Part shown: in pieces, positions 10,795-57,252 of the stretch | How positions within the stretch are numbered: position 1 is the stretch's first letter | Layout: each line of letters starts with the position of its first letter | Virus record (IMG/VR): IMGVR_UViG_3300016457_000282 | Span: 32,001 to 96,000 of that record | Length of the DNA stretch: 64,000 bases | Direction: 5' to 3' (one strand) | From: a virus | Position numbers and translations under genes: made by a program | The notes under the pieces: generated by a model | Databases searched by the model: none | What the model was told of the DNA's origin: nothing | What the model saw: the letters and a program-made list of their open reading frames with translations, nothing else

Positions 10795-11035
10795 GAAGGT
10801 TCATTTAACTGGGGATTCATATAGTAAGGACTTCATATATTAACGAGGTTCATATTAGTGAGGTTTATATTACAGAGGGTTTGTACAACAGGAGAGGAAG
10901 AGGGTTATATAGTAAGGACTCTATATAACAAGGTCTATGTAATAGGAGTTTACATAACAAAGGTTCATATAGTGAGGTTTATATTACAGAGGGTCTGTAC
11001 AACAGAGGAAGAGGGTTATATAGTAAGGACCCATA
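10795..11035. repeat. degenerate tandem repeat region including a ~72-bp direct duplication (10846-10920, 10961-11030)
   Basis: AGGTTCATAT(T)AGTGAGGTTTATATTACAGAGGGT(T/C)TGTACAACAG..GAGGAAGAGGGTTATATAGTAAGGAC twice; short GGTTCATATAG-like units repeat throughout. Confidence 0.7.
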
Positions 11036-11114
11036 CGAGTTAAATTCGCCTCCCCTATTATAATTTACCTAAAATTAAAACATCACTTAAACTTAAGAAA
11101 GGAGGAGGTAAATT

Positions 11115-11426
11115 ATGAAGAACTTGAAAATTTACAACCCTGACCTTAAACCCCAGGTCACCATCAAAACCCTGATCTCCCAGGTAAAAACCCAGAAACC
11201 ACAACGTACCTTGGGACACGTGTCCCTCTCCCGAACATACATTCGGGAAATAAAGAGAGAGGTTGGGACCGAAGAGTTCGGGACTCTCGGACCCACCACT
11301 GTGTACAAAGTGGTGGTGGAACTGATAAAACAGAGAAAACCTGACCTTCTTCCCCGGATTAAAGAAGAGGTAGGGGAAGAAAGGTTTAAAAGGGAGGTAT
11401 TCAACCTCTACTACAGGGAAAAGTAG
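11115..11426 (+). CDS. hypothetical protein, paralog of 13049-13387
   Basis: Strong RBS AAGGAGGAGG; NPDL..LGHVS..EVG.EE..TLGP shared with the paralog. Confidence 0.8.
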   Translation: MKNLKIYNPDLKPQVTIKTLISQVKTQKPQRTLGHVSLSRTYIREIKREVGTEEFGTLGPTTVYKVVVELIKQRKPDLLPRIKEEVGEERFKREVFNLYYREK

Positions 11427-11747: not shown

Positions 11748-12251
11748 GTGAGAAAAGTGAATATTAAGGAGCTCCTTCAACAGGCTCGTGCTCAGAGTCG
11801 ACGGAAGAGAGGTCGTGGTCACCGTCCTGTGATAAGTGACCGTAAGGCCTCCAAACCTAAGGCTCTGTTGGGCACGAAACTTAAGAGGAATGAGTGGGAA
11901 TGGCTTCCGTACCACTCTCCATCAGCATGGATGGCGGAGTGGTCAGCTAACCTACAGTATCAAGAAGAGGTACGTAGGTTAGAAGAGAAGACCACTCCTG
12001 CTCCAGAAGGCTCCTTAAGGGATCTCCTAACTAAAGCGAAGGCCTCGGTTAAGAGAGGGAGACCTCGTAAGCAGAGGCCGGAGTTGGTTAGGGACCCGGA
12101 GATTCAGACCGGATACGGATTAAAACTCCTCGAGTTAGAGGAGAAATACCCGGTTAATCCGTATTATTGGAACGATTCTCCAGGTGATCCTAGAGAGATT
12201 CCTTGGGGAGATTTGGATGACCTGGCCCGGTTGGTAGATAAGTTACTGTAG
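11748..12251 (+). CDS. hypothetical basic protein
   Basis: AAAGGAGG then GTG; degraded paralog at 16857-17326. Confidence 0.75.
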   Translation: MRKVNIKELLQQARAQSRRKRGRGHRPVISDRKASKPKALLGTKLKRNEWEWLPYHSPSAWMAEWSANLQYQEEVRRLEEKTTPAPEGSLRDLLTKAKASVKRGRPRKQRPELVRDPEIQTGYGLKLLELEEKYPVNPYYWNDSPGDPREIPWGDLDDLARLVDKLL

Positions 12252-15492: not shown

Positions 15493-15685
15493 TCTAAGGA
15501 AAAAATTTCCAGCAAAACAAAGCGTAGAATAGCAAATAATAATCTAAATGACAGACTCTTACTGCCGGGGGTTGTCTCAAGGAACTAAACTACGTTAAGT
15601 ACCTCACAAAACACCCCCTTAGGAACTGAACCCGGGGCGGTTGAGTTACAATAACAGGAGTAAGTACCCCATATCTAAAAAATTT

Positions 15686-15865
15686 AAAAATCGGAGAATG
15701 ACTTTTAGTACACTCTCATTAAAAGAGGAGAATGACTTTAGTACACTCTCATTAAAAGAGGAGAATGACTTTAGTACACTCTCATTTATAAAAATCGGAG
15801 AATGACTTTTAGTACTCTCTCATTTAAAATCGGAGAATGACTTTTAGTACTCTCTCATTTAAAAA
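15686..15865. repeat. five tandem 33-37 bp iteron-like repeats (candidate origin or operator array)
   Basis: GGAGAATGACTTT(T)AGTAC(A/T)CTCTCATT at 15693, 15727, 15760, 15797 and 15832 in AT-rich context. Confidence 0.85.
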
Positions 15866-17934: not shown

Positions 17935-18897
17935 ATGTTCAGCTTGGACGAACTGTTGTCGATCTTTAACGATGTTGAAGAAGTTGAGATGTCTCCTTCC
18001 TTTGCTTTTGTTTACTCACAGTTGGTAGAGAAAGGCACTTCTGCTTTTTGGTTAGGAGTGCGTAAGCACGCTTTGAGAGATTGGTATGAACAGTACCATA
18101 ATGTGTTAAGCGAAGACGTTAAAGTTGAGTATACTCCTGTTAGGATCCCTAAAAGGTCTGGTGGTTTTAGAACTCTGTACATTCCTTCAGATCAACTCAA
18201 GGAGAGACAGCGAGCGTGGTTAAAGCTAACCTACATTTTGGTTCCTAAAGTGACGCACGCTTATGCGTTCGAGAAACGCAGATCTTTACGAGATGCTCTT
18301 GAAAAGCATGTAGGTAACTACTTGTTCCTAAGACTGGACATAAAGGATGCTTATCCTTCGATCAGAAAAAAAGTTCTCGACTCAGTACTGGTAAAGCACG
18401 ATGTGCCGCTTTCTGTTAGACAAATGTTGATAAGAGATTGTTACTTTAAAGGTTTACCTCAAGGAGCTCCTACTTCGGGCCGGTTGTTCAATATCGTGCT
18501 TTCTCAGACTGATTTAGTAATTGCAGAAGTAATTGCGAGACTACACGGTGTATACACTCGTTACGCAGATGATATACTAGTGTCCTTTCCTAAAGACGCT
18601 AAAATCTCCATCTCAAAAACGAGTCAGGTCATTAACCGTTACCTAAACAAAATCAGTCTTGAGCTTCATCCTTCTAAGTTAAGAGTCGGAAGAGGCAAGC
18701 TACGAGTTTTGGGTTGTGTAGTTCATTCTGACAAAGTTACGATATCGCGTAAGGTTAGAAGATTGTACCGAGCTATGCTTCACAACAATAAGACAGGTAA
18801 GATCTCATTAAGTAAACATAAAATCAACGGTATCAAAGGTTGGTTAAATATGGTGTACCGAAGTGAAACGGTTCCGGCTATAGGACCTATCTCATAG
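17935..18897 (+). CDS. retron-like reverse transcriptase
   Basis: IPKRSGGFRTL, HAYAF, LDIKDAYPSI, GLPQGAPTS, YTRYADD, LRVLG; 320 aa with no maturase or endonuclease domain. Confidence 0.88.
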   Translation: MFSLDELLSIFNDVEEVEMSPSFAFVYSQLVEKGTSAFWLGVRKHALRDWYEQYHNVLSEDVKVEYTPVRIPKRSGGFRTLYIPSDQLKERQRAWLKLTYILVPKVTHAYAFEKRRSLRDALEKHVGNYLFLRLDIKDAYPSIRKKVLDSVLVKHDVPLSVRQMLIRDCYFKGLPQGAPTSGRLFNIVLSQTDLVIAEVIARLHGVYTRYADDILVSFPKDAKISISKTSQVINRYLNKISLELHPSKLRVGRGKLRVLGCVVHSDKVTISRKVRRLYRAMLHNNKTGKISLSKHKINGIKGWLNMVYRSETVPAIGPIS

Positions 18898-22412: not shown

Positions 22413-22748
22413 ATGCAAGTAGTTCGTTCAGAGGTTATTACATTAGATAAGTTACGAACTGTTTTAGAAGAAAACAAAGGTGTGTTGTTGTGGGTTTGTT
22501 TCTACTCGCCGTCCTACAGAATCCTCAAAGGACCTTACGACGCTGCTGGTAGAGAACGAGCGTACAGTTGGTTTTCGGCCTATCTCGATAGAGGCATGGA
22601 CCGTGAAAGTATGGGTGCTTCTAGTCCAGAAGAGTTGATCAGGTTCATTCAAGAGAGAATGTTAGTTGGAGACCAGTTTTATTGGTTTGCGTCTGAAGCT
22701 GATCTAATTGCTTGGTTACGTGAAACACCGATAGTTAAACAAGATTAA
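22413..22748 (+). CDS. hypothetical protein
   Basis: AGGAGG before ATG 22413. Confidence 0.65.
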   Translation: MQVVRSEVITLDKLRTVLEENKGVLLWVCFYSPSYRILKGPYDAAGRERAYSWFSAYLDRGMDRESMGASSPEELIRFIQERMLVGDQFYWFASEADLIAWLRETPIVKQD

Positions 22749-22764: not shown

Positions 22765-23754
22765 ATGTATAGAATCGAAGGAAGTTACGCGTTAAAAGAA
22801 GTACTAGTAAAGTGTCTGCGAAACAATTTATCTGTTTTGGCCTCAGGGGCGCCAGGTATTGGGAAGAGCGAAATTTTCTTCCAAGCTATAAGTGAAGTCT
22901 CAGAATCGTTTGCTGTACTGACACCGACTGAGGTACGACTCTATTTAATGGAGCCAGGTGAGGCTAAAGGCATTCCTTGGCTAGTTGAGAGAAGGACTGT
23001 TTGGTCTCGGCCTGATTGGCTACCAGAAAAGGAAAACACGGCTCTGTTTTTCGACGACATTCATTTAGTTCGTGAATACAATCAAAGCCCTTTATATGAG
23101 TTACTATTGTGCAGAAGACTGCATGGACATACAGTTCCAGAGTCGACCAGGTTCGTTGCAGCTGGAAATATTGGTCTGGCGTCAGCTAGCGCCTCTGAGA
23201 TAATGGCGCCTATTATGGATAGGTTCGACCTTTTCGTCGGGTACACTCCTACTCTAGAAGACTTCGTAAAGTATGCGATTTCTCAAGGTCTTGATAATAG
23301 AATTATTACATTCTTGTCTTCTTATGGAACAGACTACTTATATACGCCTGATCCAGGAACGAGTCAGAAGTTTCCATCGCCTCGAGCTTGGTTTTCTTTA
23401 GATAAGGCACTTAAGGCAGGATTCTCAATTGAAGTGGCTCCAGGTGTAGTAGGAATCGATGCTGGATCCAAAATAGTAGATGCTTGGCCTTTTCTGAATC
23501 AGTCTCTCAATGATCTTTTGTCGAAAGATTTCACTGACGCTGATTTGAAAGATCAAGTAGCCGCGGCAGCCTTTCTATCGTCATACAAGCCCACAGACCG
23601 CATACTTGTGACAATTAAGAAGTTGACTCCGGACGCTCGAGCTTGTTACTTCAGACTAGTTCTCACTCGATTTCCCGATCAGGTCAAGTTCCTGTATCGT
23701 AATAGACACATGAAAGAAATTGTAGATGAACTAGCAGCTATTTTAGGAGAGTAA
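22765..23754 (+). CDS. MoxR-like AAA+ ATPase
   Basis: Walker A GAPGIGKS, Walker B LFFDD, AAGN, MDRF, FPSPRAW. Confidence 0.85.
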   Translation: MYRIEGSYALKEVLVKCLRNNLSVLASGAPGIGKSEIFFQAISEVSESFAVLTPTEVRLYLMEPGEAKGIPWLVERRTVWSRPDWLPEKENTALFFDDIHLVREYNQSPLYELLLCRRLHGHTVPESTRFVAAGNIGLASASASEIMAPIMDRFDLFVGYTPTLEDFVKYAISQGLDNRIITFLSSYGTDYLYTPDPGTSQKFPSPRAWFSLDKALKAGFSIEVAPGVVGIDAGSKIVDAWPFLNQSLNDLLSKDFTDADLKDQVAAAAFLSSYKPTDRILVTIKKLTPDARACYFRLVLTRFPDQVKFLYRNRHMKEIVDELAAILGE

Positions 23755-23755
23755 A

Positions 23756-24901
23756 ATGAAGAAACAAAAGGATACAAAACTAAGAATTGATGCTTATCGA
23801 AAGGTAGGAACATCTGCTGCATTACAAATTCCGATCTACTTCGATAAGTTGCCTAGTGAAATAGGCGGTTGTCTGGTTCGAGATAGTCACATTGTAATAT
23901 CTGAAGAAGAAGATTATCAAACTCAGTTGTTTGTGTACTGTCACGAACTGCTACACTACATATTCAACCACATTAGAAGAGGTGCTGGAAAAGATCGAGT
24001 CCTTTGGGGACTAGCTATTGACCATGTTGTAAACAACTTATTAACTACTGTCCTCGAGCTTGAGTCTGTGAATTGGGTTGAACAACATAGGTTTATACTG
24101 TTTCGAGATATTCCTGATGGGCCTGCCGAGTTGATTTATCGAGAGTTACAACGCTTAGTAGATAAGACTAAAAAGGAAGGAAAAACCGAGTTTAAGTTTG
24201 GCGGCAAGACAATACGATTAGTACCGCTTACTGTAGATGGTATCAGACCCCCTAAGCACTTTACTGAACCTCTGCCGATAAGTACTGGATCATTATATGA
24301 GTTTGGGAATCATCTCAAGTCCCAAGGTAGTGTTTCTGCCGACGTGCTGCGTGAGATTGACCAAGGTTATAAGTCTCAAGTTCCTTGGGAGCGAGTAATC
24401 GCGGCTAGGATTTTGTCTTTCATAGGAAAGAAAGTTGCTACACCAACCTATACGAAGTTACCGTACTACCAAATCGCTTGCGACGTTCGTTTAGCTGGTA
24501 ACTACAAGAAGGAGTTTAATCTCGTTACGGCTTTTGATACCTCAGGTAGTATTTCGCAACAAGAACTTTCGAAATTCTGTGCTGAATATCAACGAGTTGA
24601 GAAGTTAGTTTCAGAACATTGGGTTTATGTGATAGATGCTGATATTCACGCTGTATTACATAACCCGTCGTATGACGAGCTGGTTGCGAACTTGAGAGGA
24701 GGTGGAGGTACTAGTCTAGCACCGCCTTTTGAAGATGTTGAGAAGAGAAAACTGAAACCTGACTTGTTCGTATACTTTACAGACACTTTTGGTACCTTTC
24801 CTCAAAAGACACCTACTTACTCTGTGATTTGGATTGTAGTTAGAACTTTCCAAACGTTAGACATACGAGTACCTTTTGGTACTGTTTACTATATTGATTA
24901 A
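23756..24901 (+). CDS. DUF2201-type metallopeptidase + VWA domain protein
   Basis: HELLH, DTSGS MIDAS, GGGGT, YFTD. Confidence 0.85.
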   Translation: MKKQKDTKLRIDAYRKVGTSAALQIPIYFDKLPSEIGGCLVRDSHIVISEEEDYQTQLFVYCHELLHYIFNHIRRGAGKDRVLWGLAIDHVVNNLLTTVLELESVNWVEQHRFILFRDIPDGPAELIYRELQRLVDKTKKEGKTEFKFGGKTIRLVPLTVDGIRPPKHFTEPLPISTGSLYEFGNHLKSQGSVSADVLREIDQGYKSQVPWERVIAARILSFIGKKVATPTYTKLPYYQIACDVRLAGNYKKEFNLVTAFDTSGSISQQELSKFCAEYQRVEKLVSEHWVYVIDADIHAVLHNPSYDELVANLRGGGGTSLAPPFEDVEKRKLKPDLFVYFTDTFGTFPQKTPTYSVIWIVVRTFQTLDIRVPFGTVYYID

Positions 24902-29178: not shown

Positions 29179-29793
29179 ATGAAGAAGCTCTCGGAGTTGG
29201 AAGAAAGGTTTGACGTAAAAATCCGCTTGTTGGAGAAACTTTTAGGTACTGTGCCAAAAGATCCAGAAGTCTATACTCGTTTTGTAGCAAGTAAGGCACC
29301 AGAACCTGAACTGGAAGAGGAAGAAACGGAAACCGTCGAAGAAGTAGAGGAGAGAGGTTGGACCGGATTTCATAAGAACGAGCAAGGTATTTTCATCTAC
29401 AACTACATGATCAAAGGCTTCCTTAAAAGCGCATGCGAAGTGTGCATGTCCGCAGGAGCCTTGTCTAAGATCGTTGCTTATAAGAAGTGGATCGATCTGG
29501 TAGTTTTTATTGACCCACGGCAGATACCGTTAGGAAAGAAGGAACCAGATGGTTGCTTAGAGCGACCTTTGAGAACGTTAACAGCGAAAGGTCCTCGAGT
29601 GACTGTTTGCAGAAGTGATTATGTAGATGCAGGGACTGAAATTCAGTTTACAGTGAGAATTCTGAAGAATAAAGTTGGGATTAATCGTGACGCTATTGAG
29701 CAAATGCTTGATTATGGTAAATACGTTGGGTTAGGACAGTGGAGAGGCTCCGGTGGTTATGGTCGTTTCGAAATAGTAGAAGTGTCACCTTGA
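29179..29793 (+). CDS. solitary Cas7/RAMP-superfamily protein
   Basis: N-terminal strand VKIRLLEKLLG, IYNYMIKGFLKSA helix, VDAGTEIQFTV, and C-terminal G-rich loop GLGQWRGSGGYGRF; AAGGAGG RBS. Confidence 0.8.
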   Translation: MKKLSELEERFDVKIRLLEKLLGTVPKDPEVYTRFVASKAPEPELEEEETETVEEVEERGWTGFHKNEQGIFIYNYMIKGFLKSACEVCMSAGALSKIVAYKKWIDLVVFIDPRQIPLGKKEPDGCLERPLRTLTAKGPRVTVCRSDYVDAGTEIQFTVRILKNKVGINRDAIEQMLDYGKYVGLGQWRGSGGYGRFEIVEVSP

Positions 29794-29807
29794 AGTATGT
29801 AGTAGTG

Positions 29808-29860
29808 GTCATATGATCCTGTGTTAAAACATCATGACTTTCTCTGTATGGCGTTTGTAA
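29808..29860 (+). mobile_element. IscB-element end scar (fused left/right end), copy A
   Basis: GTCATATGATCCTGTGTTAAAACATCATGACTTTCTCTGTATGGCGTTTGTAA. Confidence 0.6.
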
Positions 29861-30895
29861 TGCACTGTAACGAAGCGTGAAGGTTTGTCTTTATAGAGCT
29901 AAGCATGAGCACAGTGATGCTCAGTTCCGTGAGCGGAAAATCAGTTTGCAAACCAGAAGATTACAGAGCCATCGTAGGTAGAATGGGGAAAGGTAGTATT
30001 AGCACGGAAAAGTGTAGTCGTGTAACCGGTATCGTGGTGTTATGTAATTTGATGTAAAAGTAAACTACTTTGACTAACTGAACATACGATGACTCATAGG
30101 TGGTTAGAAGAAGGGAAGTTCCTTCTCAGATGTCTCTTAAAGAGAGATTGTTCCATTATGTGGCAAAGAATGTTGTACAGTGCAGTCAAAGAGTTTTTAC
30201 GGGGCGTGAAAGCTTGGTTCAGTAGAGCAAACCAATGTTGTGTAAAGTAAAGGTATTGTATTGTTTTGCATGCGACGCACTGTCTTGGTCATAGCAATTA
30301 AGTACTGAATAACTTAGATGTAAGGAGTTTTATCAAAAGTTTTCAGAGAAAACCTAGAAGTTTGTCTCTAAGGTAGTTGACTGCACTGTTTGGTAGCCTT
30401 TTCAACATGCGTTGGTAGTTTTTGTTAAGAAAGTAAGGAAAAGTGGAAGAAAAGACAGCTCTGAGGAGAAGCTATTGCAAAGTCAACTAAAGTGAAGGTG
30501 GTGTATCGTACTATGCTGTGGAGGCTTGAGTAAGTTTAGCGAACTCGAGTGGTGGCTTCGTAATGCTCCGTGTTGTGGGGGAGTATGGTAAAGAGAGGTA
30601 CCGTATCATATTGCGAAGGTGATGTAAGGCCTGGTCCTGCACCGGTAATGTAAAGTCAACTAAAGCAGTCTGAAGTTGTGTGTGGTAACGGTTAAGTGTA
30701 CTGTGGTATTTTGAAGTGCAGTAAAGTGAAAGGTGCTGTCGCGTAACGTAGTGATCTGTATTGGCGTCTTAGATTTTTTTCTTCGCTTAAACATAGTCAC
30801 ATGATTAGGTGCTAAAGCATCACGGTTTTCTTCACGTGATCTGCAAAGTACAGTGTCGTATTCCAATGTGTGGGTTCTGTATCGTAGCGTTTAGA
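29854..30895 (+). ncRNA. non-coding array of 5-nt NNNGY units punctuated by xxxGGT hexamers (candidate guide-RNA array of the Cas7-like protein)
   Basis: e.g. 30595-30765: GAGGT ACCGT ATCAT ATTGC GAAGGT GATGT AAGGC CTGGT CCTGC ACCGGT AATGT AAAGT CAACT AAAGC AGTCT GAAGT TGTGT GTGGT AACGGT TAAGT..; no + strand ORF of 60 aa or more. Confidence 0.7.
30796..30848 (+). mobile_element. IscB-element end scar, copy B
   Basis: GTCACATGATTAGGTGCTAAAGCATCACGGTTTTCTTCACGTGATCTGCAAAG. Confidence 0.65.
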
Positions 30896-30910
30896 GTACA
30901 CTTAAACTCC

Positions 30911-31100
30911 GTCACATGACTAGGAGCTAAAGCATCCTGGCTTGTGATCATGCCAATGGACTATGGTGATGCACCCAGGGGTGTCGTTCCAGCTCCTGGC
31001 TCTGCGAAGGAGCATTCGATTGAATGCGTTCGTACTTTCAAGCCATAGCTCAGGCCAGGGACGTATTACTGCTCCTGCCCTATAGGGGCATACACCAGGA
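30911..31100 (+). ncRNA. omegaRNA (HEARO-type) scaffold of IscB
   Basis: GCTAAAGC hairpin, CACCCAGGGGTG..TTCCAGCTCCTGGCTCTG core, GCATTCGATTGAATGC and TGCCCTATAGGGGCA hairpins, directly upstream of iscB. Confidence 0.82.
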
Positions 31101-31109
31101 GGAAAATCG

Positions 31110-32573
31110 ATGCAACATCAACGATTAATATTTCTTGTAGATGGAAGAAATAACATTTTACATCCAACACGAAAGTTGGATATGGTTAAACGTTGGTTGC
31201 GACAGATGAATGCTAAAGTCATTCGATTTGTCGGTAAAATTATGGTCGTACAAGTGTTCAAGACACTATCGCAGCAAAGAGATAACCCTATATACTGGAT
31301 TGGAGTAGATCCAGGAGATACGATTGGTATTTGTTTAGTCAGAATCACTATGTATAACAAAGTCAAGCAATTGCTAAGTATCGAATTTCACACAAGGTCG
31401 AAAGAAATCAAGCAATTACTTGAGATAAGACGGGGATATCGAAATATGAGACGATACTTCAGACGTAAACGTATTAAGAGAAAAGGACTCGTACCAAAGC
31501 ATAGACCAGCTAGATTCGAAAATAGAAGACGTTTAGATGGACGGTTGACTCCATCAGTTCGACATTTTCTAGAGTCACATAAAGCTGCTATACAGAAAAT
31601 AGTTGAATACGTTCCTGACGCTAACATCTCACTTGAATATGCTAAGTTTGACATCCAACGTATGATGAATTCAGATATTGAAGGTGAGCAGTATCAACAC
31701 GGAAGATTATTCGGTTACCAAAATATTCGTGCTTATGTACTACACCGTGATAAGTATGCATGTCAGCTATGCGGAAAGAAGAACGTTCAATTTCAGCTGC
31801 ATCATGTAGTACCCAGATCTCAAAACGGTAAAGATCATCCGGATAATCTTATTACACTGTGCCCAGATTGTCACGTTAAAGTACATACTGATGCTCAGTT
31901 GCTGAAAAGAGTACAAAGCAAAATCAAAACGAAAATAGCAGACTTCACATCTACATCCAGACTCAATATCATTATGCCGTTTTTAAAAGATTGGTTGTCA
32001 GATGCTTTCGGTAAAGAACATGTTTGGTTCTGTATTGGTGCTGATTCATATGTTATTCGTAGAGAGCTCAATCTTGTCAAATCTCACTGTAATGATGCTT
32101 ACTGTATTGCTATCAACAAACTGATGCGAAACAACGTTGAAATCAAACATGAACCATTCATCGATAAACATGTGGTACGTTTTGAACAGAAACGACAGCA
32201 TAATCGTAGAATGAAGAATAGCGAACGTAATCGATTGTACTATGTCATCAAAAACAAGAAGTGTATTCGTGTAGCTACGAATCGAAATGGAAATCCAGAG
32301 TCATTTCATAACGTATACAGTACGAAAATTCTACCACTGTTAAAACAGGGTTATCAAGTCAAAGTAAATCCTGGTGTCAAAGGCTATCGAAAGAAGTTCT
32401 CTGAAGTTGGATTCAAGGAAGGTGCTACAATTGAAATCGACAATCATATTGATGTGTTGAAGGGTTATAGTTTGACAGGTGGATTTGGATATACATACGA
32501 TGGAACACGATTCAAGCTTAAGGATATGAATGTAGTATATCCATATGGAGGATGGAAATGCGTAGAAACATAA
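31110..32573 (+). CDS. iscB: IscB RNA-guided endonuclease
   Basis: PLMP-like ILHPT, RuvC-I IGVDPG, Arg-rich bridge helix, RFENRR, RuvC-II LEYAKFD, HNH CQLC..HHVVPRSQNG..NLITLCPDCH, RuvC-III SHCNDA. Confidence 0.93.
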   Translation: MQHQRLIFLVDGRNNILHPTRKLDMVKRWLRQMNAKVIRFVGKIMVVQVFKTLSQQRDNPIYWIGVDPGDTIGICLVRITMYNKVKQLLSIEFHTRSKEIKQLLEIRRGYRNMRRYFRRKRIKRKGLVPKHRPARFENRRRLDGRLTPSVRHFLESHKAAIQKIVEYVPDANISLEYAKFDIQRMMNSDIEGEQYQHGRLFGYQNIRAYVLHRDKYACQLCGKKNVQFQLHHVVPRSQNGKDHPDNLITLCPDCHVKVHTDAQLLKRVQSKIKTKIADFTSTSRLNIIMPFLKDWLSDAFGKEHVWFCIGADSYVIRRELNLVKSHCNDAYCIAINKLMRNNVEIKHEPFIDKHVVRFEQKRQHNRRMKNSERNRLYYVIKNKKCIRVATNRNGNPESFHNVYSTKILPLLKQGYQVKVNPGVKGYRKKFSEVGFKEGATIEIDNHIDVLKGYSLTGGFGYTYDGTRFKLKDMNVVYPYGGWKCVET

Positions 32574-34745: not shown

Positions 34746-34946
34746 GTGAAGGACCACAAAAATGAGTGGTTAGCGAAAGTGTTTCCTCTTTGGTTCAAAG
34801 TAATCAAAGGTAATCCTTATAGGTTGCCTATAGGAAAGGTATTACGAGGGCGATACAAAGATGGCGATGCTTCTCCATTTCCCGTAGAATTACAAGGCAA
34901 TCAAATGTATCAAATGAAGTTGGAAGAAGTTGAAGAAATTAAATGA
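34746..34946 (+). CDS. hypothetical protein
   Basis: GAGGAGG RBS, GTG start. Confidence 0.6.
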   Translation: MKDHKNEWLAKVFPLWFKVIKGNPYRLPIGKVLRGRYKDGDASPFPVELQGNQMYQMKLEEVEEIK

Positions 34947-35950
34947 AGGAGAGAAACATGGATAAAGAGGAATTAGCGCAGATATTAAAGGAACACAAAA
35001 AGTGGTTGACAGGGAAGGGAGGAGGAACTAAAGCTGATTTAAGAGGAGTTGATTTAAAAGGAGTTGATTTTTCAAAGGCTAACTTGAGAAAAGCTAACTT
35101 TAAAGACGCTAATCTTACAGGAGCTAACTTTAGAGAAGCTAATCTTAGCTGGGCTAATCTTCAAAGAGCCGATCTTAGAGAAGCTAATCTCATAGGAGCT
35201 AATCTTAAGAAAGCTATTCTCGCGGAAGTTGATCTCCAAGGAGCCGATCTCACGGAAGTTGATCTCACGGGAGCTAACCTCTGGAGAGCTAATCTTAAGG
35301 AAGCTGATCTCGCGAGGGCTGATCTCAGAGGAGTTGATCTCAGGGAAGTTGATCTCTCGAGAGCTAATCTTACAGGAGCTAATCTCAGGAAAGCTATTCT
35401 CACGGAAGGTGATCTTGAGGAAGCTAATCTCACAGGAGCTGACCTTTGGAGAGCTAATCTTAAGGAAGCTGATCTCGCGAGGGCTGATCTCAGAGGAGTT
35501 GATCTCACAGGAGCTGATCTTAGGGAAGCTAATCTCACAGAGGCTGACTTTAGGGAAGCTAATCTTAAGGAAGCTATTCTCACGGAAGCTGATCTTAGAG
35601 GAGTTAATCTCAAGGATGCCAGAATAAATTATTTGACCACGGGCATCCACCCAGCACCGGAAGGAGATCTAATTGGTTGGGGAAAGAAAGACGGGTACAT
35701 CGTCAAACTCCTCATCCCTAAAGAAGCTCGCCGGTCATGTGCTACAACAAGAAAGTATAGAGCAGAATATGCTATTTGTTTAGAGGTAGAGGGAACAGAT
35801 GAGGTAATAGTAAAGAATAGTCATGCTACCGCCGTTTATCGACCTGGAGAAAAGGTGGTAGCACATGAATGGTGTGAGGATAGATGGCAAGAATGTGCGG
35901 GAGGAATTCATTTCTTTCTGACTAGAGAAGAAGCAGAAGCATGGGGTTAG
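34943..35950 (+). CDS. pentapeptide-repeat protein with C-terminal DUF5758-like domain (likely start 34958)
   Basis: A(N/D)Lxx repeats; GWGKK..IVKLLIP..ARRS.ATTRK.RAE..W.ECAGGIHFF. Confidence 0.88.
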   Translation: MKERNMDKEELAQILKEHKKWLTGKGGGTKADLRGVDLKGVDFSKANLRKANFKDANLTGANFREANLSWANLQRADLREANLIGANLKKAILAEVDLQGADLTEVDLTGANLWRANLKEADLARADLRGVDLREVDLSRANLTGANLRKAILTEGDLEEANLTGADLWRANLKEADLARADLRGVDLTGADLREANLTEADFREANLKEAILTEADLRGVNLKDARINYLTTGIHPAPEGDLIGWGKKDGYIVKLLIPKEARRSCATTRKYRAEYAICLEVEGTDEVIVKNSHATAVYRPGEKVVAHEWCEDRWQECAGGIHFFLTREEAEAWG

Positions 35951-35973
35951 ATAAATAGTAGAAGGAGGAAAAC

Positions 35974-36717
35974 ATGAATAAGGAGGAATTAGCGCAAATA
36001 TTAAAGAACCACGAAAAGTGGCTGACAGGAAAAAAGGGAACAAAAGCTAATCTGGAAGAGGTTGATTTGAGAGGAGTTGATCTCACAAGAGCTGATCTTA
36101 GGGAAGCTAATCTCAGAGGAGCCGACCTCTGGAGAGCTAATCTCTGGAGAGCTGATCTCTGGGGAGCTAACCTCAGAGAAGCTAACCTCAGAGGAGCTGA
36201 TCTCTGGGAAGCTAACCTTTGGGAAGCTAATCTCAGAGGAGCTAATCTCTGGGAAGCTAACCTCTGGAGAGCTAATCTTAAGGAAGCTGATCTCACAGGC
36301 GCTGATCTCAGAGGAGCTGATCTCACAGGCGCTGATCTCACGGGAGCTAATCTCAGGGATATCAGAATAAATTATTTAACCGTGGGTATCCACCCAGCAC
36401 CAGAAGGGGATCTAATTGGTTGGGGAAAGAAAAACGGCCACATCGTCAAACTCCTTATCCCTAAAGAAGCTCGCCGGTCATGTGCTACAACAAGAAAGTA
36501 TAGAGCAGAATATGCTATTTGTTTGGAAATCGAAGGAGCAGATGAGGTAAAAGTAGAAAATTACTATGCTACTGCGATTTACCGGTCCGGAGAAAAAGTG
36601 GTAGCACATGAGTGGTGTGAGGATAGATGGCAAGAATGTGCAGGAGGAATTCATTTCTTCCTGACTAGAGAGGAAGCAGAAAATTGGGTTGACTCAAAGG
36701 AGGTAAACCATGATTAA
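35974..36717 (+). CDS. pentapeptide-repeat protein with DUF5758-like domain (tandem paralog)
   Basis: Same architecture with fewer repeats. Confidence 0.88.
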   Translation: MNKEELAQILKNHEKWLTGKKGTKANLEEVDLRGVDLTRADLREANLRGADLWRANLWRADLWGANLREANLRGADLWEANLWEANLRGANLWEANLWRANLKEADLTGADLRGADLTGADLTGANLRDIRINYLTVGIHPAPEGDLIGWGKKNGHIVKLLIPKEARRSCATTRKYRAEYAICLEIEGADEVKVENYYATAIYRSGEKVVAHEWCEDRWQECAGGIHFFLTREEAENWVDSKEVNHD

Positions 36718-42657: not shown

Positions 42658-42899
42658 TACTGAAATACAGTACTAATTAGTCGCGCGTATTTTCGCACAA
42701 AATCATAGGAATTTGCGCAGTTCTTTGTTCAGAGTATGTCTTAGTATTGCTAGTAGGGGAACCATCACAAATTCGCGCATTTTGTGAGTTTTAGTTACTT
42801 TATGGTTCAACAAAGCCCTCAATTAGTTGCCTTAGTACGAATAGGAGAGGTTGTTACGTCCGTTTGAACCTAGGAGGGGTTCCCTTTGAACTCCCCATT

Positions 42900-42953
42900 G
42901 TCACATGATCAGGTGCTAAAGCATCCAGCTTTCTCTGCATGAAGTTTGTAAAG
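42900..42953 (+). mobile_element. IscB-element end scar, copy C (subtelomeric)
   Basis: GTCACATGATCAGGTGCTAAAGCATCCAGCTTTCTCTGCATGAAGTTTGTAAAG. Confidence 0.65.
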
Positions 42954-43190: not shown

Positions 43191-43240
43191 CTTAATAAGA
43201 TTTAATAAGATCTTATAAGATCTTATTAAATCTTATTAAG
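43191..43240. other. axis of symmetry; putative hairpin telomere or concatemer junction
   Basis: CTTAATAAGATTTAATAAGATCTTA|TAAGATCTTATTAAATCTTATTAAG, perfect palindrome centred at 43215/43216. Confidence 0.7.
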
Positions 43241-55535: not shown

Positions 55536-56577
55536 TCTAAACGCTACGATACAGAACCCACACATTGGAATACGACACTGTACTTTGCAGATCACGTGAA
55601 GAAAACCGTGATGCTTTAGCACCTAATCATGTGACTATGTTTAAGCGAAGAAAAAAATCTAAGACGCCAATACAGATCACTACGTTACGCGACAGCACCT
55701 TTCACTTTACTGCACTTCAAAATACCACAGTACACTTAACCGTTACCACACACAACTTCAGACTGCTTTAGTTGACTTTACATTACCGGTGCAGGACCAG
55801 GCCTTACATCACCTTCGCAATATGATACGGTACCTCTCTTTACCATACTCCCCCACAACACGGAGCATTACGAAGCCACCACTCGAGTTCGCTAAACTTA
55901 CTCAAGCCTCCACAGCATAGTACGATACACCACCTTCACTTTAGTTGACTTTGCAATAGCTTCTCCTCAGAGCTGTCTTTTCTTCCACTTTTCCTTACTT
56001 TCTTAACAAAAACTACCAACGCATGTTGAAAAGGCTACCAAACAGTGCAGTCAACTACCTTAGAGACAAACTTCTAGGTTTTCTCTGAAAACTTTTGATA
56101 AAACTCCTTACATCTAAGTTATTCAGTACTTAATTGCTATGACCAAGACAGTGCGTCGCATGCAAAACAATACAATACCTTTACTTTACACAACATTGGT
56201 TTGCTCTACTGAACCAAGCTTTCACGCCCCGTAAAAACTCTTTGACTGCACTGTACAACATTCTTTGCCACATAATGGAACAATCTCTCTTTAAGAGACA
56301 TCTGAGAAGGAACTTCCCTTCTTCTAACCACCTATGAGTCATCGTATGTTCAGTTAGTCAAAGTAGTTTACTTTTACATCAAATTACATAACACCACGAT
56401 ACCGGTTACACGACTACACTTTTCCGTGCTAATACTACCTTTCCCCATTCTACCTACGATGGCTCTGTAATCTTCTGGTTTGCAAACTGATTTTCCGCTC
56501 ACGGAACTGAGCATCACTGTGCTCATGCTTAGCTCTATAAAGACAAACCTTCACGCTTCGTTACAGTGCATTACAAA
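55536..56577 (-). ncRNA. pentameric NNNGY array (mirror copy)
   Basis: Mirror of 29854-30895. Confidence 0.7.
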
Positions 56578-56637
56578 CGCCATACAGAGAAAGTCATGAT
56601 GTTTTAACACAGGATCATATGACCACTACTACATACT

Positions 56638-57252
56638 TCAAGGTGACACTTCTACTATTTCGAAACGACCATAACCACCGGAGCCTCTCCACTGTCCTAA
56701 CCCAACGTATTTACCATAATCAAGCATTTGCTCAATAGCGTCACGATTAATCCCAACTTTATTCTTCAGAATTCTCACTGTAAACTGAATTTCAGTCCCT
56801 GCATCTACATAATCACTTCTGCAAACAGTCACTCGAGGACCTTTCGCTGTTAACGTTCTCAAAGGTCGCTCTAAGCAACCATCTGGTTCCTTCTTTCCTA
56901 ACGGTATCTGCCGTGGGTCAATAAAAACTACCAGATCGATCCACTTCTTATAAGCAACGATCTTAGACAAGGCTCCTGCGGACATGCACACTTCGCATGC
57001 GCTTTTAAGGAAGCCTTTGATCATGTAGTTGTAGATGAAAATACCTTGCTCGTTCTTATGAAATCCGGTCCAACCTCTCTCCTCTACTTCTTCGACGGTT
57101 TCCGTTTCTTCCTCTTCCAGTTCAGGTTCTGGTGCCTTACTTGCTACAAAACGAGTATAGACTTCTGGATCTTTTGGCACAGTACCTAAAAGTTTCTCCA
57201 ACAAGCGGATTTTTACGTCAAACCTTTCTTCCAACTCCGAGAGCTTCTTCAT
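56638..57252 (-). CDS. solitary Cas7/RAMP-like protein (mirror copy)
   Basis: Identical to 29179-29793. Confidence 0.8.
   Translation of the reverse strand: MKKLSELEERFDVKIRLLEKLLGTVPKDPEVYTRFVASKAPEPELEEEETETVEEVEERGWTGFHKNEQGIFIYNYMIKGFLKSACEVCMSAGALSKIVAYKKWIDLVVFIDPRQIPLGKKEPDGCLERPLRTLTAKGPRVTVCRSDYVDAGTEIQFTVRILKNKVGINRDAIEQMLDYGKYVGLGQWRGSGGYGRFEIVEVSP

Follow-up and report, generated by a model that had tools for sequence, protein, structure and literature searches.

VIPR is a very recently described RNA-guided DNA silencer related to CRISPR, and experimental characterisation is limited to its type II members with GGY/NN repeats. Two preprints of 2026 describe a phage-borne minimal RAMP protein (Vipr) together with vrRNAs built of GGY/NN units (bioRxiv 10.64898/2026.04.26.720920; 10.64898/2026.04.26.720927). 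According to these preprints, Vipr polymerises on the vrRNA with one protomer per five-base repeat. The complex binds double-stranded DNA, with two bases read and one skipped, and silences the transcription of competing phages. In type II VIPR, vrRNAs of 9–16 units are capped by a conserved structured 3' tail, and vap1 is present. Here, we analysed a stretch of 64,000 nt (the window) from the DNA of an uncultured phage, IMG/VR virus record IMGVR_UViG_3300016457_000282. The window carries a gene for a 204-aa protein and, directly downstream, an array with a period of five bases. This locus very probably encodes a VIPR system from a clade whose repeats have the form NNNGY (YNNNG). VIPR of this kind has already been published, and the locus is a further example, not a new discovery.

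The methods of one of the preprints (bioRxiv 10.64898/2026.04.26.720920) name 'NNNGG, YNNNG, and NNNNG repeats' for loci without YNNGG. Its text and the legend of fig. S18 mention 'staggered arrays' of abutting vrRNAs, which stand outside the set confirmed by small-RNA sequencing. The preprint reports no targeting rule or experiment for YNNNG. The locus in the window had been picked out from its letters alone, and this original prediction took the NNN-GY repeat for a divergent code variant. As NNN-GY is YNNNG in the notation of the paper, the repeat type is not new, and this part of the prediction was not upheld. The features of the locus are as follows:

29179–29793, + strand: vipr gene (open reading frame, ORF) for a 204-aa minimal RAMP with a single RRM core, a thumb hairpin and a G-loop
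29790–29817, + strand: sigma-70-like hexamer pair TTGAAG-16-TATGAT at the vipr stop codon, a consensus match only
29861–30795, + strand: main body of the putative vrRNA array, NNNGY pentamers with NNNGGY hexamers
29848–29930, 29975–30060, 30147–30290 and 30473–30770, + strand: best-formed array tracts in the parse
30849–30890, + strand: residual pentamer tract in the parse (TCTGC AAAGT ACAGT GTCGT ... TCTGT ATCGT AGCGT)

The array departs from the canonical GGY/NN (YNNGG) consensus and follows the alternative YNNNG consensus. Like YNNNG and staggered VIPR, the locus consists of a lone small RAMP gene in a phage and a same-strand five-base array in which only G and Y are constant. Moreover, the guides abut, and there is no conserved tail. 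It differs from these loci as described in that the stagger is an NNNGGY hexamer every 5–6 units, which lies inside decoded matches, and in that no vap is conserved. The accessory vap gene is typical of VIPR, though not universal, and was not found at the locus.

The type II VIPR of Escherichia phage SUSP1 (PDB 36pp) shares with the locus a protein of ~200 aa with an RRM core, a thumb and a G-loop. The G-loop motif GxGxWR...GRF aligns, the guides have a period of five and one target triplet would fall to each unit. The differences concern the anchor and the layout. SUSP1 uses NNGGY, with G at the third position in 69% versus 13–28% here. It has four discrete vrRNAs with a conserved leader and a pseudoknot tail as well as vap1, and Asp177 where this clade has Gln.

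The 204-aa protein carries a MIKGFLKSACEV helix and a Gly-rich C-terminal loop, GLGQWRGSGGYGRF. An AlphaFold model was computed from an alignment of 46 sequences and reached a predicted local distance difference test score (pLDDT) of 88.9 and a predicted template modelling score (pTM) of 0.83. It has a beta-alpha-beta core, a thumb hairpin at about residues 125–149 and the G-loop at residues 183–196. A Foldseek search of the PDB with this model gave 165 matches at E≤0.001. The top matches were type VII Cas7, Csm3 and Cas7-11 (E 3e-8), and the best matches listed were all Cas7-type RAMPs (Cas7, Csm3, Cmr4, Cas7-11). With the independent aligner VIA-align, Csm3 had a Z of 11.1, and RAMPs (Cas7, Csm/Cmr subunits, Cas5, Cas6) made up 34 of the first 35 rows. 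The fold libraries of both searches were without Vipr structures. In the 46-sequence alignment, the invariant or near-invariant residues were R129, R132, R140 and R145 in the hairpin and G184, G186, Q187, W188, R189, G192 and G195 in the loop. The conserved residues of hairpin and loop are placed where RAMPs hold RNA. The model confirms a small single-RRM RAMP with a G-loop and a thumb, in line with the RAMP hallmarks that the original prediction had read from the ORF.

Among the sequence libraries, Pfam, NCBIfam and PADLOC gave zero matches for the protein, and PHROGs gave one weak match (E 2.7e-4) to a family of unknown function. A word-indexed search returned 339 metagenomic homologues. The full profile search returned 2402 representative clusters (clusters at 50% identity) at E≤0.001. 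The relatives include proteins of uncultured faecal phages and of Hydrogenobaculum phage 1.

The backbone subunits of class 1 CRISPR systems polymerise on guide RNA with a fixed step. Csm3, Cmr4 and type VII Cas7 are the best structural matches of the 204-aa protein (Z 10–11) and have the G-loop and the thumb in common with it. Unlike class 1 CRISPR systems, the locus has no CRISPR array, Cas5, Cas6 or large subunit, the step is 5 nt instead of 6 nt, and the system is phage-borne. An Rfam search gave no matches, Tandem Repeats Finder (TRF) found no repeat-spacer array, and PADLOC found no cas match for the protein or its upstream neighbours. The array itself bears no likeness to CRISPR repeats. 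The predicted absence of cas genes and of a CRISPR array was borne out by these searches.

Downstream of the gene, between 29794 and 31109, no + strand ORF exceeded 53 aa (range 40–53 aa), which agrees with the ~1.1 kb without a + strand gene noticed at the outset. We computed the autocorrelation of GY (G then T or C) over 29800–30900. It was +0.20, +0.18 and +0.16 at lags 5, 10 and 15, respectively (z 6.4, 6.2 and 5.0). The null was formed by 1000 dinucleotide-preserving shuffles (mean 0, sd 0.03, maximum 0.10). The proposed 5-nt periodicity was hence present when compared with shuffled sequence. The composition of the units was counted only at sites with GY at −5 and +5. In the window, G occupied position 4 in 67% and Y position 5 in 81%. 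A G preceded GY in 13–21% (13% among GY-flanked sites). Because G at position 3 reached only 13%, the constant part is GY and not GGY, as had been suggested.

The array is continuous in the parse and has no recurring tail. Two stretches are degenerate, one from 30060 to about 30146–30200 and one at 30290–30470. The residual tract at 30849–30890 is split from the main array by a mini-element derived from the end of an IscB element. The stretches at ~29808–29860 and 30796–30848 were tried as pentamer array and rejected; in the alignment they are copies of this IscB-end mini-element. The parsing of the whole downstream DNA into pentamers, as first put forward, thus holds for the main tracts and fails for the two copies and the degenerate stretches. 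The T-run proposed as a transcript end is found at 30774–30781 but was not called by the terminator scan, in which 30808–30821 was the sole terminator-like site. Judged by its sequence, the sigma-70-like pair at 29790–29817 is a possible candidate for the array promoter. The count of sigma-70-like sites in the region was not above the shuffle expectation. Further period-5 signals at 34850–36350 in a sliding scan were also rejected as array, as they stem from two pentapeptide-repeat genes with a 15-nt period. Those on the − strand are mirror images because the contig is palindromic.

A scan of IMG/VR yielded 62 related loci with proteins 30–87% identical. All of them are on viral contigs, in keeping with the mainly viral or proviral carriage of VIPR. 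In 61 of the 62, a period-5 GY tract of 0.2–1.7 kb lay directly beside the gene and on the same strand. Elsewhere in the 10-kb loci such tracts were nearly absent. Homologues with the same tract beside the gene had been anticipated. Across the family, the unit has G in 85% and Y in 85%, against just 28% G one position earlier. As a positive control, the SUSP1 vrRNAs were run through the same script and gave 69% G before GY, which corresponds to NNGGY. The same parser resolved SUSP1 into discrete vrRNAs of 12–15 units with a repeated leader and tail.

The arrays contained 569 phase slips of one base with well-formed units on either side. In 86% of them the following unit carries GG, which identifies the slip as an NNNGGY hexamer. 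The run length between slips peaks at 5–6 units. The 6–7-nt punctuation words of the original prediction are real slips of this NNNGGY type. In three near-identical array pairs, the constant G changed in 0.4% and the extra G of the hexamer in 0 of 56, versus 2.1%, 2.5% and 2.9% for N1, N2 and N3. Arrays could not be aligned between loci with up to 87% identical proteins, which means that guide content turns over quickly. A codon reading of the units was tried through stop-codon depletion and discarded. Stop codons among the N1N2N3 triplets numbered 254 versus 274 after permutation of N3 (z −1.8), a weak result that is confounded by general TA avoidance.

The family profile was compared with the PDB sequences and ranked type VII Cas7 and the 'SUSP1 Vipr protein' (36pp_D, E 0.087) side by side. 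A single-sequence search of the same PDB sequences with the 204-aa protein gave nothing relevant. With hhalign, the family matched SUSP1 Vipr over 46 C-terminal columns with a probability of 82% and an E of 1e-5, and GLGQWRGSGGYGRF was paired with GVGDWR--PRFGRF of SUSP1. The original prediction had pointed to a likeness to VIPR; the preprints describe such systems, and the G-loop aligns to that of SUSP1 Vipr.

In SUSP1 Vipr, recognition of the first G falls to D177, the second G is stacked against W178 and the pyrimidine is held by R179 (bioRxiv 10.64898/2026.04.26.720927). The 204-aa protein keeps the latter two as W188 and R189, its G-loop being GQWR versus GDWR in SUSP1 Vipr. The equivalent of D177 is Gln in 49 of the 50 loci with a readable G-loop motif. 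Gln187 at the Asp177 position would fit an anchor that has lost the first G, as far as a comparison of two clades can suggest. Since Gln is nearly universal within the clade, the G-loop residue cannot be correlated with the G content of the anchor there.

Two stretches of the array could be decoded against the T7-type phage IMGVR_UViG_3300028591_000033 (complete, 44.8 kb; hereafter G002):

30682–30727, + strand: guide B, nine units with the first two letters GT AA TA GT GT AT GA GC AA
30214–30259, + strand: guide A, nine units, TTG TCA AGA AAA AAT TGT AAA AAA ATT

The letters of guide B are the first two codon letters of V-N-Y-V-V-I-E-A-N/K, the nuclease motif of the terminase large subunit. 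This motif came from exact scans of IMG/VR, in which the first two letters of each unit were searched at period 3. The module 30687–30727 had 13 matches, 8 of them in frame on the coding strand and reading [NK]YVVI[DE]A[NK]. Three of these fell within large subunits of T7-type terminases, in the RNase H-like nuclease domain (PF22530, 'VNYVVIEANFGDGM'), and one within a gpA-type terminase. The preceding unit, GTGGT, fits a conserved Val, so that the nine units at 30682–30727 match 18/18 letters in G002. A decoy with reversed unit order gave 22 matches, of which 7 were in frame and 0/22 in terminase (Fisher p ~0.014, homologous matches not being independent). The third letter of guide B agreed in 4/9 units, and one unit (TAA) could not be a codon.

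Guide A was found by scanning all guides of the window against G002. It equals 25 of 27 contiguous bases of G002 11820–11846 on the minus strand. The null maximum was 22–23/27 in three null models with 3000 trials each. Read on the complementary strand, the target consists of an A/T tract and CTTGACA. It is promoter-like and lies in a region with tandem TTGACA...TATAAA sites, 1.5 kb downstream of the G002 terminase. The third letter of guide A agreed in 8/9 units, and third-letter agreement at promoter-like sites was enriched about four-fold over expectation.

One hexamer lies within each of the two matched spans, and the triplet register is not shifted by it. Because they are inside the matches, the hexamers do not delimit the two decoded guides, contrary to the punctuating role first assigned to them. 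Judged from these matches, a rival phage of the T7 type seems to be the target of the two guides. The gapped-match search of the variable positions in phage DNA, which had been proposed as a check, gave two guides that fit one DNA triplet per pentamer. Together with fold, periodicity and linkage, this supports the predicted non-CRISPR, RAMP-based RNA-guided system with a gapped code.

Other target searches gave little. In the phage's own genome, no self-targets were found above decoys. Six pairing rules (NNN, NNNx, NNNxx, N1N2x, xN2N3 and N1N2xx) were compared over the 62 related loci and the phage's own genome, and only N1N2x was in excess. This excess was small (524 versus 441 exact words in reversed-sequence decoys) and can be explained by codon periodicity. 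Two matches of the guide at 30474–30510 to sites resembling a ribosome-binding site in G002 (18/21, twice) were near the noise level and were not used.

In G002, short repeats rich in AAAGT, AAGGT and TTAAAGG were seen downstream of the terminase at 10930–11200, with a strong hairpin terminator at 10998–11027. Tandem TTGACA...TATAAA promoter-like sites were seen at 11841 and 11912.

We infer transcription, filament assembly, DNA binding and silencing for this locus. The 204-aa Vipr would polymerise on array transcripts with one protomer per five-base unit. Each protomer would clamp the constant G and Y through Trp188, Arg189 and the thumb arginines and leave the variable bases exposed. Such a filament would then attach to the double-stranded DNA of competitor phages, with each unit matched to one target triplet, and would silence transcription as in SUSP1 VIPR. 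The first G of GGY would be free to vary here, which would fit Gln187 in place of Asp177. The NNNGGY hexamer every 5–6 units would leave the target register unshifted.

The third base of the unit, which stands in place of the first G of GGY, deserves separate mention. Over both guides, it agreed in 12/18 units versus ~30% by chance, and in guide A the agreeing bases include two letters of the complement of the −35 box. The two matches support period 3. A unit of the GY clade might carry three target-derived bases instead of two, which we regard as possible though rather doubtful. In that case, the Gln-type Vipr may read triplets without gaps and tolerate variation at the third base, or the guides may be copied from target triplets. 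Either way, the NNNGGY hexamer would belong to the internal structure, with about one hexamer for each helical turn, and would not mark a guide boundary.

A number of points weigh against the assignment to VIPR or against the targets. Similarity in sequence to the proven Vipr is confined to the C-terminal 46 columns, and the case for homology over the full length is built on fold and context. A conserved 3' tail or a pseudoknot of the type II kind was not seen. No neighbour gene family was common to more than 6 of 63 loci, so the clade is without a conserved vap gene. With G at 67% and Y at 81%, the array of the window is more degenerate than those of its relatives, and this degeneracy, together with the invasion by IscB-end mini-elements, means that parts of it may be decayed.

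The target evidence, which consists of sequence matches, is modest. As the terminases are homologous, the three T7-type matches of guide B are not independent. The exact motif occurs in just 2 of 120 close terminase homologues, and the terminase-motif guide was not found in any other array of the 62 loci. The promoter-like pattern matched by guide A is generic, with at least 119 N1N2x matches. Exact IMG/VR scans with three other modules gave nothing or chance-level results: 0 matches for an 11-unit module of a related locus (L054), 1 out-of-frame match for a 9-unit module of another (L053) and 2 chance-level matches for the window module 30641–30686.

Among the other explanations, the one that fares best is an RNA–protein filament directed at RNA or at the expression of the phage itself, such as autoregulation or an RNA scaffold, with variable bases that hold no target code. 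Csm3 and type VII Cas7, the closest of the solved folds, target RNA, and most guides tried gave no target. However, self-matches in the own genome did not rise above decoys, and guide content is completely replaced between close relatives, which is what a targeting repertoire would be expected to show. Both decoded guides match a single foreign phage, one in a promoter region that does not look transcribed and the other on the coding strand in sense orientation. Published VIPRs bind double-stranded DNA. We consider such a filament unlikely.

An orphan Cas7 left by a decayed CRISPR-Cas locus, with downstream periodicity of no function, could account for the Cas7-like fold. Such an origin would also fit a protein that no sequence-library family recognises beyond the weak PHROG of unknown function, and an array that is degenerate in parts. 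It is contradicted by the linkage, i.e. the same-strand period-5 tract beside the gene in 61 of 62 viral loci. The locus has no cas gene or CRISPR array, the family spans 2402 representative clusters, and the constant G changes five to seven times less often than the variable bases. This origin is therefore highly improbable. Just as improbable is the anti-CRISPR decoy of the original prediction, in which a mimic of Cas7 or a decoy RNA would poison the class 1 effector complexes of the host. Nothing was found in its favour beyond the phage origin and the Cas7 fold; it needs neither a hypervariable pentamer array nor a GY register conserved down to 30% protein identity, and the array is unlike CRISPR repeats.

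As a YNNNG-type VIPR, the locus belongs to a very large metagenomic clade (the 2402 clusters at 50% identity) with a two-letter anchor. It adds a grammar of NNNGY units with periodic NNNGGY and, with the Asp-to-Gln exchange in the G-loop, a candidate residue explanation for the relaxed anchor. It further adds two candidate natural targets in a T7-type phage, the terminase nuclease motif and an early-type promoter. These would allow the targeting rule of the YNNNG class to be measured directly.

The record of the window was classed as viral and 94% complete by CheckV. The whole record of 150,430 bp is its own reverse complement, i.e. a perfect palindrome of 2 x 75,215 bp, and IMG/VR classes it under 'inverted terminal repeats'. 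Within window positions 22431–64000, each position x is complementary to 86431−x with zero mismatches, and the palindrome centre lies at 43215/43216. A fold-back assembly artefact is probably behind this, and a head-to-head replicative dimer is possibly an alternative origin. Owing to the palindrome, all features to the right of the centre duplicate, in mirror image, those to its left. No terminase gene of the phage itself was located. The mirror copy of the locus and further genes of the window are as follows:

55541–57252, − strand: mirror-image copy of the whole vipr locus by the palindrome, not an independent second system
31110–32573, + strand: IscB gene (NF040563, 223 bits versus a cut-off of 175) with RRXRR and HNH
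34943–35950 and 35974–36717, + strand: two tandem paralogues of pentapeptide-repeat proteins (A[DN]LxE-type, 15-nt period)
17935–18897, + strand: reverse-transcriptase-like gene (phrog_2825, phrog_1423)
23756–24901, + strand: second HNH endonuclease gene (phrog_1314, E 1e-41)

The IscB element adjoins the VIPR array, and two different RNA-guided systems thus lie side by side. A sub-threshold match to HEARO/omega-RNA (28 bits, E 0.0024) was seen upstream of the IscB gene at 30911–31069. The RRXRR-HNH gene was considered as a vap nuclease and rejected, as it is IscB with a HEARO-like RNA upstream and is absent from all other related loci in the neighbour comparison (63 loci). IscB is not part of the VIPR system. 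The alignment placed copies of the 5' end of the IscB element (GTCAYATGAY..GGWGCTAAAGCATC hairpin) at ~29808–29860, 30796–30848 and ~42890–42950. Two of these copies bracket the array, which suggests that it was invaded by mini-elements derived from an insertion sequence.

Both pentapeptide-repeat paralogues share a conserved C-terminal domain. The second HNH endonuclease gene is adjoined by an ATPase gene at 22765–23754. A 33-bp tandem repeat with 5.2 copies lies at 15682–15864, ~2 kb upstream of the reverse-transcriptase-like gene. Gene and repeat could be a retroelement such as a diversity-generating retroelement (DGR) or a retron.

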